Assembly: GCA_017857175.1 (NCBI GenBank)
Contig: JAFMDS010000001.1
Coordinates: 55,088 to 119,087, forward strand
From: Candidatus Nanopelagicales bacterium
GTDB lineage: Bacteria > Actinomycetota > Actinomycetes > S36-B12
DNA: 64,000 nucleotides
Direction: 5' to 3'
The notes beneath the pieces are model-generated. The model had not been told where the DNA came from. It searched no databases and was given only the letters and a program-made list of their open reading frames with translations. Below, piece by piece: positions 5,802 to 64,000 of the stretch. Position 1 is the first letter of the stretch. The number at the start of each line of letters is the position of its first letter. Made by a program: the position numbers and the translations under genes.

Positions 5802-7438
<1,637 letters not shown>

Positions 7439-54792: not shown

Positions 54793-56001
54793 ATGCGAAT
54801 ACTCGCGATTGGGGCGGGCGGCGTTGGCACGAGCGCTGCGTTAATTGCTGCGCGTCGCACATTTTTTGAACATTGGGTGTGTGCTGACTATGACCTAGAG
54901 CGCGCAAATGATCTTGTGCAGCAAGTGAATGATTCACGCTTTGTTGCATCTCGCGTGGACGCCTCGGACAGCGCCGACATTGAAAGGCTGATTCGTGAGC
55001 ATTTGATCACCCATGTTTTGAATGTTGTTGATCCACGATTTGTCATGCCGATTTTCATGGCGGCTCTGAATGCGGGTGCGAACTACATGGATACCGCCAT
55101 GAGCCTGTCTCGACCGCATCCCGTGGCACCATTTCAAGAAACTGGTGTCAAACTGGGTGACGAACAATTCGAAACCGAGCACCACTGGCGTGACAAAGGG
55201 CTACTTGCACTCTGTGGCATGGGGGTAGAGCCAGGTCTGGCAGACGTATTTGCTCGATACGCGGCTGACCACCTTTTTTCTGAGATCGACGAGATCGGAA
55301 TCAGAGACGGCGCAAATCTTCAGGTTGATGGCCATTCATTTGCTCCGACATTCTCCATCTGGACCACTATTGAAGAGTGTCTTAATCCACCTATCATCTG
55401 GGAAAAGACCAAAGGTTGGTACACGACCCAACCGTTCAGCGGGGCCGAAGTATTCGATTTCCCTGATGGAATTGGTCCACAGGAATGCGTGAACGTTGAA
55501 CACGAGGAAGTCGTACTCATTCCTCGATGGATCGACTGCAAGCGCGTCACATTCAAGTACGGCCTAGGTGATGAATTCATTGAGATTCTCAAGACACTGC
55601 ACAAGCTCAATCTCGATTCAACAAGTCCTGTTCTGGTCAAGGGCGTTGAAGTGAGTCCTCGTGACGTTGTCGCTGCTGCACTGCCTGATCCACTCACGCT
55701 CGGGGACAAAATGAGCGGGAAAACCTGTGCAGGAACTTGGGTGACAGGGTTAGGAAAAGACGGGCAACCGCGCTCGGTATACCTCTATCACGTTACTGAT
55801 AATGCTTGGTCAATGTCTGAATACGGAACCCAGGCGGTGACGTGGCAAACAGCGATGAACCCGGTCATAGCTCTCGAGTTGTTGTCCTCGGGTCAATGGC
55901 AAGGTTCAGGTGTGCTGGGGCCAGAGGCCTTTGATTCAGTTCCCTATCTTGAGCTGATGTCCAGTGGATTTGGGCAGCAGTTTGGCCTCCGTGAAGACTA
56001 A
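54793..56001 (+). CDS. saccharopine-dehydrogenase-family NAD(P) oxidoreductase (carboxy(nor)spermidine dehydrogenase/homospermidine synthase-like fold)
   Basis: MRILAIGAGGVGTSAA Rossmann N-terminus, about 400 aa, SDH-like C-terminal domain. ATG 54793 lies 2 nt after the ureohydrolase stop. Confidence 0.7.
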   Translation: MRILAIGAGGVGTSAALIAARRTFFEHWVCADYDLERANDLVQQVNDSRFVASRVDASDSADIERLIREHLITHVLNVVDPRFVMPIFMAALNAGANYMDTAMSLSRPHPVAPFQETGVKLGDEQFETEHHWRDKGLLALCGMGVEPGLADVFARYAADHLFSEIDEIGIRDGANLQVDGHSFAPTFSIWTTIEECLNPPIIWEKTKGWYTTQPFSGAEVFDFPDGIGPQECVNVEHEEVVLIPRWIDCKRVTFKYGLGDEFIEILKTLHKLNLDSTSPVLVKGVEVSPRDVVAAALPDPLTLGDKMSGKTCAGTWVTGLGKDGQPRSVYLYHVTDNAWSMSEYGTQAVTWQTAMNPVIALELLSSGQWQGSGVLGPEAFDSVPYLELMSSGFGQQFGLRED

Positions 56002-57362
56002 GCGCTGGTAGCTTCGAAAGCTTCTTCGAGTACTGACATGGCTTCTTCCAGTAGGTGCCGTGGCATGACAAGTGAGGGAAGGAACCTAAATACGTTGCCG
56101 TATGTTCCAGCCGTAAGAGTCACGACTCCATGTTGGTGACAGTACTTGTTTAAGGCTGCCGCCCGATCTGCATCAGGTTCCATCGTTCCAGGCTTGACTA
56201 GTTCAATTGCGATCATGGCTCCTCGGCCGCGAATATCACCGATCGTTGGGTGATTAATCTGCATGTCTTTGAGGCGGGGGAGCATGATGGATTCAATTTC
56301 CTTGGCTCGCTCGTTGGCATTATTGGCCTCCATCCATGCAATGGATCCGAGGGCGGCAGCACAGGCAACTGGATTTCCCCCGTAGGTGCCGCCGAGGCCG
56401 CCGACATGGACGCTGTCCATGATGTCTGCTCGACCGGTCACGGCCGCAAGGGGCATGCCACCTGCGATTCCCTTAGCGGTGGTGATCATGTCAGGCACGA
56501 CACCTTCAAATTCGCTCGCGAACCAACTGCCGGTTCGGCAGAATCCTGATTGAATTTCATCAGCGACGAAAACGATGCCGTTAGCCTGGGCAAAATCGGC
56601 CATCGCCTTGAAATAGCCCGGAGCCGGGACGATAAATCCACCTTCACCCAAAATAGGCTCAATGACGATGGCAGCAACATTGGTGGCACCCAATTCCTTT
56701 TCAATTTTAGAGATTGCCCAATTCGCAACCTCGGTTCCACCGTGTGGGCCGTCGTGAAATGGGTAGGAAATGGGCACGCGATAAATCTCGGGAGCAAAGG
56801 GTCCGAATGATTGCTTGTATGGCATGTTTTTGGCCGTCATGCCCATCGTTAGATTCGTTCGGCCGTGGTAGCCATGCTCCACAACGACAACTGCTTGCCG
56901 GCCGGTGAATGCCCTAGCGATTTTGACTGCGTTTTCTACGGCCTCGGCTCCCGAGTTGAAGAGCGCGGATCGCTTGTCGTGAGAGCCAGGTGTTAGCCGA
57001 TTGAGTGCCTCGCACACTTGCACATAACCCTCATAGGGCGTGACCATAAAACAAGTGTGGGTGAAATTGGCGGCCTGCTCCTGCACACCGGCAACAACCT
57101 CGGGATTCGCATTGCCAACGGTGGTTACCGCTATGCCAGAACCCATGTCAATTAATGAGTTTCCATCCGCATCGATGAGGACACCCCCGGCGGCTTTGGT
57201 GATGAAAGTTGGGAGACCGATTCCCACGCCCGCGGATACTGCATTCGCCTTCCGCGCGAGGAGTCCCTGAGATTGTGGACCCGGAATTTCGGTGACCAAC
57301 CGTCGCACCTGCTCCACCCCGTTGATGGTGTGCTCTGTTGCGAAATCTGATGTTGTTGTCAT
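55998..57362 (-). CDS. gabT: 4-aminobutyrate (omega-amino acid) aminotransferase
   Basis: FNSGAEAVENAVK, ADEIQSGFCRTG, PLP lysine TTAKGIAGGMPL. ATG 57362 follows GGAGG. The ORF-track start at 57449 is probably too long. Confidence 0.9.
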   Translation of the reverse strand: MTTTSDFATEHTINGVEQVRRLVTEIPGPQSQGLLARKANAVSAGVGIGLPTFITKAAGGVLIDADGNSLIDMGSGIAVTTVGNANPEVVAGVQEQAANFTHTCFMVTPYEGYVQVCEALNRLTPGSHDKRSALFNSGAEAVENAVKIARAFTGRQAVVVVEHGYHGRTNLTMGMTAKNMPYKQSFGPFAPEIYRVPISYPFHDGPHGGTEVANWAISKIEKELGATNVAAIVIEPILGEGGFIVPAPGYFKAMADFAQANGIVFVADEIQSGFCRTGSWFASEFEGVVPDMITTAKGIAGGMPLAAVTGRADIMDSVHVGGLGGTYGGNPVACAAALGSIAWMEANNANERAKEIESIMLPRLKDMQINHPTIGDIRGRGAMIAIELVKPGTMEPDADRAAALNKYCHQHGVVTLTAGTYGNVFRFLPSLVMPRHLLEEAMSVLEEAFEATSA

Positions 57363-57460
57363 GAAAACCTCCGCAGGTGTGCTTGGGGTAAGCGTGGACA
57401 CTTCTCCCGGGACGCAGTCTAAGGCCACGTTGGAGCAGGGGAAGAGCATAGGATGGATTC

Positions 57461-57739
57461 ATGAGTACTTCACATGAAATCAATGGGGTTCACATAAACC
57501 ATCACCAAAGGACCACGCTCGAGAAGGTGATGTCGCATCCAACTAACCATGACCTTCAGTGGAAAGACGTTATCCATCTGGCCGAAGCACTTGGTGAGGT
57601 GGATGAACGCCACGACGGCAAAATTAAACTGACCATTGGTGACATGAGTGAAGTTTTCGACCCCAACCACAGGAACATCAGCATGGATCAAATTGCGCAC
57701 CTGCGGCAAATGTTTACCGCCGCAGGCTTCACGATCTAG
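57461..57739 (+). CDS. small His-rich hypothetical protein (92 aa)
   Basis: ORF with an SD-like AGGATGG. 6 His in the first 30 residues (HEINGVHINHHQRTTLEKVMSHPTNHD). 9-nt gap to the next ORF. No family recognised with certainty. Confidence 0.6.
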   Translation: MSTSHEINGVHINHHQRTTLEKVMSHPTNHDLQWKDVIHLAEALGEVDERHDGKIKLTIGDMSEVFDPNHRNISMDQIAHLRQMFTAAGFTI

Positions 57740-57748
57740 GAGAACACG

Positions 57749-58201
57749 ATGGCTGCCCACGACGAATACAATGAAATAAATCTGCATGGGAAGTTTGCCG
57801 TTGCGGCTATTGACTTTCACGAAGCTCGAATTTTCGCCCTCGAAGGAGACAACACAGGTAGGCCTGAAAGGGTTGTGGCAGAAGACAAAGACGGATTTCT
57901 GCGTAAATTACATACGAAAACAAATAACGTCGAGGGTGACTACCACACCCCAGGTGACGAGTATTGGAAATCAATCGCAATTGTGCTGCAACGAGCCAAT
58001 GCCGTTGTTCTTCTTGGACATGGAAACGGGAAGGCCAATGCCTCGCATCAATTCATCGCATATGTTGAAAAGCATTACTCAGATCTTGGCGCAAAAATCT
58101 TGGGTGACTTACGCCTTGATATTGATGACCTCACAGATCCGCAGGTTCTTCGTATCGGACAAACATTCTTTGATGTTGCCCCCAAACGGAATATGCCCTA
58201 A
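57749..58201 (+). CDS. hypothetical protein (150 aa), possibly an eRF1-domain-like/host-attachment-like fold
   Basis: AGGAG 6 nt upstream of the start. Pattern AVAAIDFHEARIF ... VVLLGHGNGKANASHQFIAYVEKHY ... ILGDLRLDIDDLTDPQVL. Functional assignment is speculative. Confidence 0.6.
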   Translation: MAAHDEYNEINLHGKFAVAAIDFHEARIFALEGDNTGRPERVVAEDKDGFLRKLHTKTNNVEGDYHTPGDEYWKSIAIVLQRANAVVLLGHGNGKANASHQFIAYVEKHYSDLGAKILGDLRLDIDDLTDPQVLRIGQTFFDVAPKRNMP

Positions 58202-58239
58202 CCGTTGAGCGTGAATCAAGTGCGCCCTAATGAGACGAA

Positions 58240-59460
58240 TTGAACAGACCCCCTTCTAATCTGATCCGTGTTGCCATATTGGGCAGCACTGGGTCCATTG
58301 GAACCCAAGCACTGGACATCATTCGACGCAATCCATCGATGTTTACAGTGATGGGATTGAGTGCATCTGGTAACAATCCGGATCTCTATGCTCAACAAAT
58401 CCTTGAATTTCTGCCAGACGTTTTCGGTGTTAGCCGAGGCACGTGCGCACAGGACATTCAGATGCGGGTTTTCGCGGGCGCCCAGGAAGCAGGTTTCGCG
58501 GTTGGCGATTCACGAATCCCTGAAATGGTCGTTGGTCCCGATGCGTCAGCCCAAGTAGCATCACTTGGTGCCGACGTCGTTCTTAACGGAATTGCTGGGG
58601 CAGCGGGCCTTGTTCCCACGCTTCGGGCGCTTGAATCGGGCTCTACGTTGGCGCTGGCCAACAAGGAGTCTTTGATCATCGGCGGTGATTTGGTCAAGCG
58701 GCTGGCAGAACCAGGGCAAATAGTTCCTGTTGACTCGGAACATTCTGCACTCGCCCAAGCGATGCTTGCCGGTACACATACAGAGGTCTCAAAATTGATT
58801 CTGACGGCCAGCGGTGGGCCTTTCAGGGGTTGGACTTTGGAGCAGTTGGCCTCCGTGACTGTTGCTCAAGCATTGGCGCATCCCACATGGAGCATGGGGC
58901 CATTAGTGACAATCAACTCAGCGACGATGGTTAACAAGGGTCTCGAAGTCATTGAGGCGCACCTACTATTTGACATTCCCTTTGATGACATCGAAGTCGT
59001 CATTCACCCGCAATCGGTAGTGCACTCAATGGTGGAATATGTGGATGGCTCAACCATCGCTCAAGCGAGCCCGCCTGATATGCGCATACCCATCGCGTGG
59101 GGGCTGGCGGCTCCCCATCGCATTGAGGGAGCGGCAGCCCCATGTGACTGGTCGCAAGCTGCAACCTGGGACTTCTTCCCCGTGGACAACGCAGCATTTC
59201 CGGCGGTTGACTTGGCCCGATCCGCAGGGGCTGCAGGAGGAACGGCACCCGCTGTTTTTAATGCTGCTGATGAAATCGCCGTAGAAGCGTTTCTTGACGG
59301 GGCCATCGGGTTCGTTGACATCGTACCCATGATCAATTCTGTACTAGGTCAACATCTGGAGTCAGCCCATGTGTCAGGGAACGGGCTTACACTGGAGAAC
59401 GTCCAAGATGCTGACGCATGGTCCCGCGCCCGAGTGCGCGAGATCATCGCAGCACAATGA
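58240..59460 (+). CDS. dxr: 1-deoxy-D-xylulose-5-phosphate reductoisomerase
   Basis: VAILGSTGSIGTQ, LANKESL, PVDSEHSA, HPTWSMG. Confidence 0.96.
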   Translation: MNRPPSNLIRVAILGSTGSIGTQALDIIRRNPSMFTVMGLSASGNNPDLYAQQILEFLPDVFGVSRGTCAQDIQMRVFAGAQEAGFAVGDSRIPEMVVGPDASAQVASLGADVVLNGIAGAAGLVPTLRALESGSTLALANKESLIIGGDLVKRLAEPGQIVPVDSEHSALAQAMLAGTHTEVSKLILTASGGPFRGWTLEQLASVTVAQALAHPTWSMGPLVTINSATMVNKGLEVIEAHLLFDIPFDDIEVVIHPQSVVHSMVEYVDGSTIAQASPPDMRIPIAWGLAAPHRIEGAAAPCDWSQAATWDFFPVDNAAFPAVDLARSAGAAGGTAPAVFNAADEIAVEAFLDGAIGFVDIVPMINSVLGQHLESAHVSGNGLTLENVQDADAWSRARVREIIAAQ

Positions 59461-59510: not shown

Positions 59511-60839
59511 GTGCAGGTGCTCGAGGTGATTGGGATTATCTTGTTTGCGGCGCTCATCGGGCTCTCGATTGCACTCCATGAAATTGGGCACCTTGTGCCA
59601 GCAAAAAAGTTCGGAGTCCGCGTAACCGAGTACATGGTCGGTTTCGGTCCAACACTGTGGTCAAAGGTACGCGGGGAAACCCAATATGGCATCAAAGGAA
59701 TTCCTTTAGGCGGGTACATACGAATGATTGGCATGCTGCCGCCAGCGCCGGATGATCCAGAAGGTCGTTCACGGTCCATGTCCACCGGTCGATTTGCCAC
59801 AATGGTTGCGCAGGCTCGTGCAGCATCATTTGATGAAGTCGTACCTGGAGATGAAAACCGGATGTTTTACAAGCTCCCGGTGCACAGGCGAGTGATCATC
59901 ATGCTCGGCGGCCCAATCATGAACCTGCTCTTGGCATTTGTGCTCTTTGCCATCGTTCTTGTTGGCATTGGGCTTCCCAAACCATCACTTTCTGTCGCAG
60001 CGGTCATTCCCTGCACGCCCACAATGGAACAGCCCACGGGCCAACCACTGCCATCGGGCTTATGCCCCACTGGCACCCAGTCCACACCGGCGGCAATGGC
60101 GGGCCTTGAGGTGGATGACACAATCCTTGCCGTCGGTGACATATCCGTGGCCGATTGGGATGCAGCAACAACTTGGATTTCTCAGAATCCGGGTGTAAGA
60201 ACGAGTCTCGCGGTGGAGCGATCTGGTTCTGTAATCTCACTGCCCATTACCGTTGCTGAGGTCACTCGCCCTGAGTACGACATCAACGGCAGGGAAACGG
60301 GCGCGAGCCAGACCGTCGGTTTCTTGGGCGTTCGTCCTGGTTTCTATAACCAACGGGAATCAATTCTTGCTGTTCCCGGATTCATGTGGGATTTGACAGT
60401 GCGATCAGTTGAAGCCCTCATCTCGCTTCCCGTCAGGGTCTACGAATTAGTCACGGACACATTGATCGGTGGTCAGGAGCGTGCGATTGATGGACCGGTA
60501 TCTGTGGTGGGCGCGAGCCGACTGGGTGGAGAAATTGCAGCAATGGAATCACCCCTTAACTCAAAAATTGCGACATTCCTGGGGCTTGCGGCATCGCTCA
60601 ACCTGTTCCTCTTTTTGTTCAACCTACTCCCGGTCCTCCCTCTTGATGGAGGTCATGTAGCTGGTGCGCTCTATGAAGCATTAAAGCGTTTCTACGCACG
60701 ATTGCGCGGCAGACCCGACCCTGGTCCGGTGGACACGGCCCGCCTCTTACCGGTGGCCTACGTTGTGGCTGGGATCCTTCTTGCCATGGGGGTTATCGTG
60801 ATTTGGGCCGATTTGGTCAAGCCCATCTCGCTTGGATGA
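59511..60839 (+). CDS. rseP: M50-family site-2 (RIP) zinc metalloprotease, RseP/Rip1-like
   Basis: HEIGH in TM1, internal PDZ-like segment, [12 protein letters not shown]. Confidence 0.92.
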
Positions 60840-63017: not shown

Positions 63018-64000
63018 GTGATTTCGCGCATGTCAACCATGTTCCTTCGAACATTGCGCGATGATCCAGCCGATGCTGAAGTCCCTAGCCACAAATTGCT
63101 AGTCCGAGGTGGCTACGTTCGCAGAATTGCGCCTGGCGTTTTCTCTTGGCTTCCCTTGGGTTACAAAGTCTTTCGAAATGTGGAACGAATTGTGCGCGAG
63201 GAAATGGACAAGGCAGGATTCCAAGAGGTTCATTTTCCCTCTCTACTGCCGCGCGAGCCATATGAAACTACGGGGCGTTGGACCGAATATGGCGACAATG
63301 TCTTCCGCCTGAAGGATCGTAGGGACAACGATTACTTGCTCGGTCCAACACATGAAGAGATGTTTACCCTGATGGTCAAAGGGGAATTTTCATCGTATCG
63401 AGATTTGCCTTTATCGATCTATCAAATTCAAACCAAGTTCCGAGATGAAGCCCGACCACGAGCAGGGATTTTGCGGGGTCGCGAGTTCGTCATGAAAGAT
63501 TCCTATTCATTTGATGTGGATCACGAGGGTCTGGAAGCTTCTTATGAACGTCACCGCAAGGCATACATCTCGACTTTTGATCGCTTGAATTTGGATTACG
63601 TGATTGTCTCCGCCATGGCAGGTGCAATGGGTGGGTCGCGCAGTGAAGAGTTCTTGGCTTCAGCAGAAGTCGGTGAAGATACCTATGTGAAATGTTCATG
63701 CGGGTATGCAGCAAATGTGGAAGCACTGATTATTCCAATGGCTGAATTTGACCCCGAGCTCAACCTGAATGTGGACCTTCCAAGTTCACATGTGGAAGAT
63801 ACTCCTCAGACTCCGACAATTGATTCCCTTGTTGCAATGTCGAATGCGCGGACGGACCTTGCTCGACCAGATCGTGCTTGGCTTGCATCAGACACTTTGA
63901 AAAATTTGTTACTCATGGTCAGGGATGGAAGCGGCACTGACCGTCCGCTCGCTATTGGCGTGCCCGGTGATCGAGAGGTGGACATGCGTCGGCTTGAAGC
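63018..64000 (+). CDS. proS: prolyl-tRNA synthetase, N-terminal part; the 3' end lies outside the window
   Basis: Absent from the ORF track because there is no stop in the window. My translation from GTG 63018: [48 protein letters not shown]...[25 protein letters not shown] (class II motifs). Confidence 0.92.

Follow-up and report, generated by a model that had tools for sequence, protein, structure and literature searches.

A HicA-like protein and a putative release-factor-like core protein form a conserved gene pair upstream of dxr in Candidatus Nanopelagicales

HicA domains have been surveyed by Gerdes, who described 14 genetic contexts, none of them with an aeRF1-like partner (PMC10865869). 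Release-factor-like proteins of bacteria include Balon, a three-domain aeRF1 homologue that carries an HP motif and binds EF-Tu through its C-terminal domain; it is a proven A-site hibernation factor and is encoded in stress operons (PMC10901736). They also include the baeRF-1 proteins; for those that are reduced to the RNase H core, non-catalytic binding at the A site has been predicted (Burroughs and Aravind, 2019, PMC6514570). The main text of that paper mentions an association with HPF and none with HicA (PMC6514570). Here we describe two small adjacent genes, ORF-A and ORF-B, in a stretch of 64,000 nucleotides (nt) from Candidatus Nanopelagicales bacterium (assembly GCA_017857175.1, contig JAFMDS010000001.1, positions 55,088-119,087, forward strand), which we call the window. 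Their products, A and B, resemble a HicA toxin and the central domain of aeRF1-type proteins, respectively. Both domain superfamilies are known, while their combination, the histidine signature of A and the GHGxGKANASH family of B appear to be undescribed as far as the HicA survey and the main text of the baeRF-1 paper go.

An earlier note on this DNA had pointed to two open reading frames (ORFs) of 92 and 150 amino acids (aa), 9 nt apart and each with its own Shine-Dalgarno sequence, and the ORF list and the raw sequence agree with it. ORF-A (57461-57739, + strand, 92 aa) and ORF-B (57749-58201, + strand, 150 aa) both start with ATG and are separated by positions 57740-57748. Reading the sequence, we find a Shine-Dalgarno-like AGGA on the + strand at 57450-57453, 7 nt before the ATG of ORF-A, and an AGGAG at 57738-57742 on the same strand, which overlaps the ORF-A stop and lies 6 nt before the ATG of ORF-B. 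Both are confirmed as real, conserved genes; they stand far beyond chance because they have many homologues, invariant alignment columns and the same order in dozens of genomes. The A family has more than 1366 homologues. For B, a word-indexed search yields 68 homologues, and an exhaustive profile search yields 720 cluster representatives (E<=1e-3). The note had named a lack of conservation of the pair elsewhere as one outcome that would count against it; this is not what is seen.

The firmest result of the analysis is that A and B are linked. An A gene lies directly upstream of B, overlaps it or is fused to it in 71 of 89 loci anchored on B, a count that includes one locus where A is cut by the contig end. 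The two genes, 9 nt apart in the window, overlap by 4 nt in some other genomes. When B-family representatives are taken as 50 %-identity clusters, 59 of the best 150 carry both domains in one protein, and 58 of these 59 have A in front of B; the median length of the linker is 13 residues. Fusions are present outside the Actinomycetota in Cyanobacteria (Nostoc), Acidobacteria (Granulicella) and Dormiibacterota, the first two in cultured strains (Nostoc sp. C052 and Granulicella tundricola), and also in a metagenome-assembled genome (MAG) of Mycobacterium. The pairwise identities of A and B are correlated (Spearman 0.76). Because the genes lie back to back, co-evolve and are often fused in the order A-B, A and B almost certainly work as one physical unit, and we infer that they form a complex.

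Each member also occurs by itself. In 70 A-anchored metagenome loci the sequence extends far enough 3' of A for a verdict, and there A has no partner in 41, is paired in 25 and is fused in four; B is found without A in 18 loci, mostly from Acidimicrobiia. One Actinobacteria MAG (GCA_016717115.1, L178, 1895-7294) carries gabT on the minus strand, a PucR-type regulator, an A homologue of 97 aa and dxr-rseP-ispG with no B, and this partnerless A lies only 8 nt 5' of dxr. A conserved third partner was not found: the loci anchored on B fall in several unrelated neighbourhoods, and those with A alone share no common neighbour. Some apparent ORFs 3' of A-alone genes are antisense artefacts of high-GC DNA. 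In a Solirubrobacteraceae MAG (L087:5974-6755), the A homologue (6486-6755, minus strand) lies 3' of B on the opposite strand, the sole convergent arrangement seen.

Two of the fusions deserve a word on annotation. On plasmid pC052_A of Nostoc sp. C052 (L173:3671-4417), the fused coding sequence, WP_218651868.1, is annotated from 3818, within the A domain, and its likely start is at about 3719. On plasmid pACIX903 of Granulicella tundricola (L174:2538-3231), a frameshift breaks the fusion, and its two parts are annotated as separate hypothetical proteins.

At E<=1, Pfam and NCBIfam have no match for either of the window proteins, and no curated family covers them. The earlier note had seen in ORF-A a faint likeness to small HicA or dsRBD-like folds, a resemblance that profile comparison bears out. 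In PHROGs, the sole match for the window pair is that of ORF-A to phrog_8887 ('toxin'), with an E of 1.2e-4 for the window protein and down to 8e-9 for its relatives. The Pfam model HicA_toxin (PF07927) is reached below threshold by 15 of 56 A relatives over the whole of its 58 positions (best 21.9 bits, cutoff 27). A search of plasmids with A by tblastn returned genes annotated as 'type II toxin-antitoxin system HicA family toxin', each followed by HicB, and some A homologues in NCBI MAG records carry the name 'HicA protein'. Using an alignment of 56 A sequences (A3), hhalign gave 98.4 % (E 8.6e-15, 82 columns, approximately the whole toxin) with a HicA of Deinococcus sp. NW-56 that has HicB downstream (WP_234009273.1), and 95.5 % with the long HicA of E. 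coli (WP_000598760.1). A plain hidden Markov model of the A family matched the same two canonical HicAs at 1e-15 and 2e-10. In the AlphaFold2 (AF2) model of A (pLDDT 87.5), a hairpin and a helix at the N-terminus precede an alpha-beta3-alpha core. Structure comparison is less telling for this protein: with Foldseek, HicA (6g26_E) comes only at rank 8 with a TMt of 0.59, below significance alone, and the A profile gave nothing meaningful against PDB sequences. The profile comparisons place A in the long-form HicA family as a diverged protein with a putative dsRBD-like fold. It is homologous to these toxins (PF07927; phrog_8887) over its whole length and shares with them W34, G45, the Pro-His region and the C-terminal helix; the helix and alpha-beta3-alpha layout of its model may be theirs as well.

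In its histidines, A is not a typical HicA. ORF-A has 10 in its 92 residues and, as had been claimed for it, six within the first 30 (positions 5, 11, 14, 15, 26 and 30). The family signature read from the alignment, in ORF-A numbering, is H26, P27, H30, N/D31, W34, G45, H51, D/N52, G53, R82, M84 and G89, of which H26, P27, H30, W34, G45, G53, R82 and G89 are invariant in A3. We compared 153 A-family sequences (93 paired, 52 partnerless and eight fused) with the two canonical HicAs. H26, H30 and H51 are conserved in the A family, whereas the canonical proteins have Q/E, S and N at these positions. Conversely, the long HicAs keep the first histidine of the FHRPH motif, which in A has given way to Asp, Glu or Thr: this holds for 85 of 93 paired sequences and for most partnerless ones, and five of the eight fusions retain the histidine. 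The second FHRPH histidine is retained in A or moved by one position, and the position of the short-HicA (GSxH) histidine holds K, R or S. The FHRPH histidines are those that we take to be catalytic in long HicAs. The H-x-P-H motif is conserved in both long HicAs examined, and A departs from this presumed catalytic pattern.

The kinship of A raises the question of whether the pair is a toxin-antitoxin or anti-phage module of the HicAB type, with A as an mRNA-cleaving type II toxin, B as a replacement antitoxin and the fusions as counterparts of fused HicAB classes. We consider this rather unlikely. A is homologous to HicA toxins that have HicB partners, and the toxin-first order, small sizes and tight coupling are those of hicAB, in which the HicA gene likewise comes first in a tight two-gene unit and the second protein is RNase H-like. 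The toxin-binding domain of HicB is a partial RNase H fold, and HicA-HicB fusions are known (PMC10865869). Some A-B copies reside on large plasmids, and the GC content at the locus is somewhat below that of its flanks. Like HicB, B is encoded second, behind a gene of the HicA family; both have an RNase H-like beta-beta-beta-alpha-beta core, and both occur naturally fused to a HicA domain. HicB, however, usually joins its partial RNase H fold to a helix-turn-helix or ribbon-helix-helix, whereas B has a full RNase H-like topology with extra helices and, by a scan of curated libraries and in its AF2 model, no DNA-binding domain. No similarity was detected by hhalign between B and two HicB proteins (probability 0.1-0.2 %), and HicB is not among the top 50 structural matches of B in the PDB by Foldseek.

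Further observations count against a toxin-antitoxin pair. For an antitoxin, B shows unusually strong conservation, including an invariant motif of 10 residues, and it lives without A in 18 loci. A is frequently partnerless, in most of the A-anchored loci, including directly 5' of the essential dxr operon, which is hard to square with an active toxin. The first FHRPH histidine is replaced in most paired and partnerless sequences alike, though not in most fusions. The pair is syntenic, diverges in step with Dxr and is not found in viral contigs; PADLOC has no model that matches the window proteins; and none of the 14 published HicA contexts holds such a partner (PMC10865869). A thus differs from described HicAs in lying below Pfam and NCBIfam thresholds, in having a partner other than HicB, in its frequent partnerless copies and in apparently being inherited vertically. 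Since B lacks a DNA-binding domain, A and B each occur alone, their divergence tracks that of Dxr and neither was found in viral contigs, the pair is probably not a classic toxin-antitoxin system, whether for addiction or for defence. Should it prove to be one, it would represent a new type of antitoxin for HicA.

The identity of B is less apparent from its sequence, and public sources name it 'hypothetical protein' without exception. The earlier note had compared ORF-B to host-attachment or baeRF-type proteins, which it said some databases label 'translational machinery protein'. That label was not encountered. The comparison itself held in the predicted fold and in sub-threshold matches of relatives to baeRF and Host_attach models, while no curated model was matched at threshold. 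The AF2 model of B (pLDDT 77, pTM 0.74) has the topology b-b-b-loop-a-b-a-a-b-a. Its best PDB matches by Foldseek are the archaeal release factor aRF1 (4af1, E 2.6e-4), Pelota (3oby, E 5.8e-4) and a second Pelota structure (2qi2), along with eRF1 in 80S complexes and Rv2629, the mycobacterial Balon homologue (8v9k_z, E 2.8e-3, TMq 0.50). Nearly all top matches have a probability of 0.98-1.00, with a TMq of about 0.4-0.5. When 109 diverse B relatives were compared with curated families, eight matched baeRF_family12, four Host_attach, two baeRF_family10, one family3 and one family2, all below threshold; the best E values were 5.9e-4 (baeRF_family10), 1.5e-3 (family12) and 4.3e-3 (Host_attach).

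In the narrow B family (alignment A1, 44 sequences), residues D22, G63, Y65, G90, H91, G92, G94, K95, N97 and A98 are invariant. Most of them belong to the motif LGHGxGKANASH, residues 89-100, which forms a Gly-rich loop after strand 4. A second loop of the model, at about residues 44-69, sits where release factors carry GGQ; residues 49-64 are of low confidence and hence probably flexible. No conserved Gln is present in this loop in A1, where G63 and Y65 are conserved instead. The conserved basic residue of W73-R/K74, which starts the helix after the loop, corresponds to the pattern of inactive baeRF-1 and Dom34 proteins. The predicted fold supports, without proof at the sequence level, a view of B as a one-domain protein that is related to the RNase H-like central domain of aeRF1 and Pelota and lacks GGQ.

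Among the described proteins close to B are the core-only baeRF-1 families and Host_attach (PF18844-PF18856, PF10116). B is likewise a single domain, some 140-160 aa in size, has an aeRF1/Pelota-type predicted fold, and shares with them the missing Gln at the GGQ-loop position and the basic residue at the next helix. The sub-threshold matches of its relatives and the presence of an A homologue beside a baeRF_family2 gene (see below) add to the likeness. It differs in its unique invariant GHGxGKANASH motif, in that no member tested reaches a curated threshold, and in being associated or fused with a HicA-like domain rather than with HPF/RaiA, the association given in the main text of the baeRF-1 paper. 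With Balon (Rv2629, Msmeg1130) and Pelota/Dom34, B shares a resemblance to the central domain in predicted fold and the lack of GGQ. At 150 aa and one domain, it lacks their N-terminal decoding-centre and C-terminal GTPase-binding domains and has no sequence-level similarity to them.

On plasmid 1 of Frondihabitans sp. PAMC 28766 (L170), an A homologue lies 15 nt 3' of a gene (2279-2971) whose product exceeds the Pfam threshold for baeRF_family2 (70 bits vs 26.9). This is a second instance of a HicA-like gene beside a gene of the aeRF1 superfamily; it involves a different baeRF family and is not tied to B by sequence. The baeRF2 match begins at model position 39 and an annotated ORF (2071-2361) overlaps upstream, so a frameshift or a miscalled start is possible. 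Genes of the VIT family and with a BON domain follow the baeRF2 and A pair (L170:2071-3255).

The fold of B also admits an enzyme. B could be an RNase H-like nuclease, or a phosphate or nucleotide binder, that uses Asp22, the Gly-rich loop and Asp124/Asp126, with A as its RNA-targeting subunit, in RNA processing or repair independent of the ribosome. In the model, D22 lies on strand 1 and D124 and D126 after strand 5; D22, H91, K95, D124 and D126 are invariant or near-invariant in the narrow family. From the DSSP strand boundaries, we presume that these are canonical RNase H-like catalytic positions. RuvX/YqgF and Holliday-junction resolvases are in the Foldseek list (E 3e-3 to 1e-2), and the GxGxGK[AS] loop is weakly like phosphate-binding loops. 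Yet D22, D124 and D126 are replaced in many members of the wider family, where only three glycines stay near-invariant; the best structural matches are the non-nuclease central domains of aeRF1 and Pelota; and no nuclease family was matched when window B and its relatives were compared with curated libraries. We judge an enzymatic B to be quite improbable. We rejected B as a P-loop nucleoside triphosphatase: the GxGxGK loop is one residue short of a Walker A, and in tblastn the GxGxGK[AS] loop gave chance-level matches (E ~3) to the Walker A regions of ABC ATPases. The GHGxGK[AS] loop could still be a phosphate-binding loop.

Taken together, our preferred reading, which we put forward tentatively, is that A and B are a split, minimal A-site-type or RNA-directed factor that would act on the ribosome or on RNA in quality control, rescue or stress shutdown, and not a toxin-antitoxin pair. 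The HicA-like domain would bind RNA, and perhaps cut it endonucleolytically through its remodelled His cluster, in place of the N-terminal mRNA- or decoding-centre domain of aeRF1, Pelota and Balon. B would supply a ribosome-docking core of the aeRF1 type. The fusions, with A first and B second, parallel aeRF1 and Pelota, in which an N-terminal domain precedes the central one. The role would lie in translation quality control, rescue or shutdown under stress rather than in peptide release, because the loop of B that corresponds to the GGQ loop of release factors contains no conserved Gln. In the clade of the window, the pair would be transcribed at the head of the dxr-rseP-ispG operon. We propose this mechanism because baeRF-1 proteins reduced to the core are predicted to bind the A site (PMC6514570), and because Balon binds there (PMC10901736).

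Several points weigh against this reading. Ribosome binding by A-B is deduced from domain identity alone, and B is without the N- and C-terminal domains by which Balon, Pelota and eRF1 touch the decoding centre and the GTPase. By sequence, the membership of B in the aeRF1 superfamily is not established: window B has no Pfam or NCBIfam family at E<=1, its narrow (A1) and broad (A5) profiles find no meaningful matches among PDB sequences, and hhalign of B with the Frondihabitans baeRF_family2 protein gives a probability of 0.1 %. The Foldseek TM-scores of B are modest (~0.5), and other RNase H-like folds are also listed, with uS11 as well as RuvX/YqgF and the resolvases lower down. The partnership is facultative, as each protein occurs alone. 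No translation gene is found among the conserved neighbours, and the contexts consist of varied metabolic genes.

A bolder version of the proposal, which we think unlikely, would make the pair a 'cut-and-rescue' or shutdown factor of the ribosome. At the A site, the HicA-derived domain with its remodelled His26, His30 and His51 would bind mRNA or rRNA, or cut it, and the core formed by B would sit in the A site or on the peptidyl-transferase side. Such a protein would be a two-piece analogue of Pelota/Dom34 plus a nuclease, or of Balon, built from a domesticated toxin.

If A-B does act on ribosomes, it would be a new architecture among bacterial rescue and hibernation factors, and a toxin domain would have been domesticated for housekeeping. 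More generally, A-B may be a domesticated toxin domain that works with a release-factor-like core. Recurrent fusions of such a core with an RNA-binding domain of toxin origin are not among the 14 contexts of the HicA survey, nor do they figure in the main text of the baeRF-1 paper. The folds themselves are no surprise. That two genes are kept as a unit in front of an essential operon implies that they are under real selection, and the module, widespread in the abundant Nanopelagicales of fresh water and in other Actinomycetota, is uncharacterised and experimentally tractable. It belongs, moreover, to environmentally dominant bacteria: the Nanopelagicales are dominant freshwater bacteria with streamlined genomes.

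A scan with the pattern GHGxGKANA found relatives in at least 215 species-representative genomes. The best 80 of these 215 matches are all from uncultured MAGs and comprise Nanopelagicales, Acidimicrobiales, Frankiales, Streptosporangiaceae, Solirubrobacteraceae and Dormiibacterota; the nearest relatives of the pair are Candidatus Nanopelagicales MAGs. In 27 related loci dxr lies 3' of B, at a median distance of 4 nt, and about a third of loci are linked to dxr. A second Nanopelagicales clade has the order SDR (minus strand), A-B, DsbB (minus strand) and GFO/IDH/MocA, and the remaining contexts are diverse. Where the pair is linked to dxr, A and B diverge in step with Dxr (Spearman 0.56-0.58), as is consistent with vertical inheritance of the pair. 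A search of the IMG/VR viral contigs turned up no relative of either protein, and window B gave no match to plasmids.

Thiol-redox genes recur beside A, B or the fusion, namely DsbB, redoxin/AhpC-TSA, DsbA, DJ-1 and Rv2466c-like genes. DsbB lies convergently 3' of B in 16 loci (L037:6478-7329 and 15 related ones). Genes for redoxin/AhpC-TSA, DJ-1 and Rv2466c-like proteins adjoin A-alone genes (L175:5436-6041; L176:3801-4469), and the Granulicella fusion has redoxin and DsbA as neighbours (L174:3281-4289), and also a P-type ATPase. This recurrence could be a link to stress or a coincidence, many of the loci being phylogenetically non-independent. A and B might be a stress protein module, for example one that responds to redox state or metals through the histidines of A. 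It would then not take part directly in translation, and its folds would reflect ancestry only. The conserved His26/His30/His51 cluster and the further histidines of A would suit such a module, as would these neighbours together with the VIT and BON genes of Frondihabitans. Against it, the associations are few and largely non-independent, the dxr-linked loci have a different neighbour instead, no metal-binding or redox family was matched in Pfam or NCBIfam, and both domains come from RNA- or ribosome-directed superfamilies. We judge this explanation, too, to be quite improbable.

In the window, the pair sits where it had been placed before, divergent from gabT and directly 5' of dxr. The upstream gene is a class-III aminotransferase (gabT-like, Aminotran_3) on the minus strand, and dxr (DXP reductoisomerase, 58240-59460, + strand) begins 38 nt 3' of ORF-B, followed by rseP and ispG. 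The families of these neighbours were assigned via syntenic loci. We agree with the earlier note that neither protein has a link to amine catabolism; in this clade the pair belongs with the dxr-rseP-ispG side. Within 57000-58500, a sigma-70 consensus scan gave no promoter match, terminator prediction found none, the gap between ORF-B and dxr included, and a scan of Rfam gave no match. Because no such element was detected there, co-transcription with dxr is plausible, and A-B are probably co-transcribed with it.

Alignment with five syntenic loci delimits a divergent intergenic region (57365-57460) between the aminotransferase gene and ORF-A, with a conserved GTCATG block at the aminotransferase start and short conserved blocks 5' of ORF-A. 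This region presumably holds the promoters of both genes. The longest ORF for the aminotransferase (55998-57449, minus strand, 483 aa) is probably over-extended, the protein having 450 aa in the syntenic loci. Its likely start is the conserved CAT at ~57362-57364, after a minus-strand GGAGG, which leaves ~96 nt of intergenic sequence before ORF-A.

By eye, the DNA of the pair had seemed more AT-rich than its surroundings. The GC content is indeed 0.47-0.50 over 57400-58400 against 0.52-0.57 on both flanks, although the dip is modest and a similar one, with a GC of 0.475, is present at 63200-63800 in the window. We rejected the dip as proof of recent horizontal transfer, since it is modest, recurs in the window and belongs to genes that diverge in step with Dxr. 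Finally, further along the same operon, the longest ORF for ispG, with TTG at 60803 as its start codon, has 37 nt (60803-60839) in common with the end of rseP; the product has 385-404 aa in related loci, so its true start may lie further downstream.

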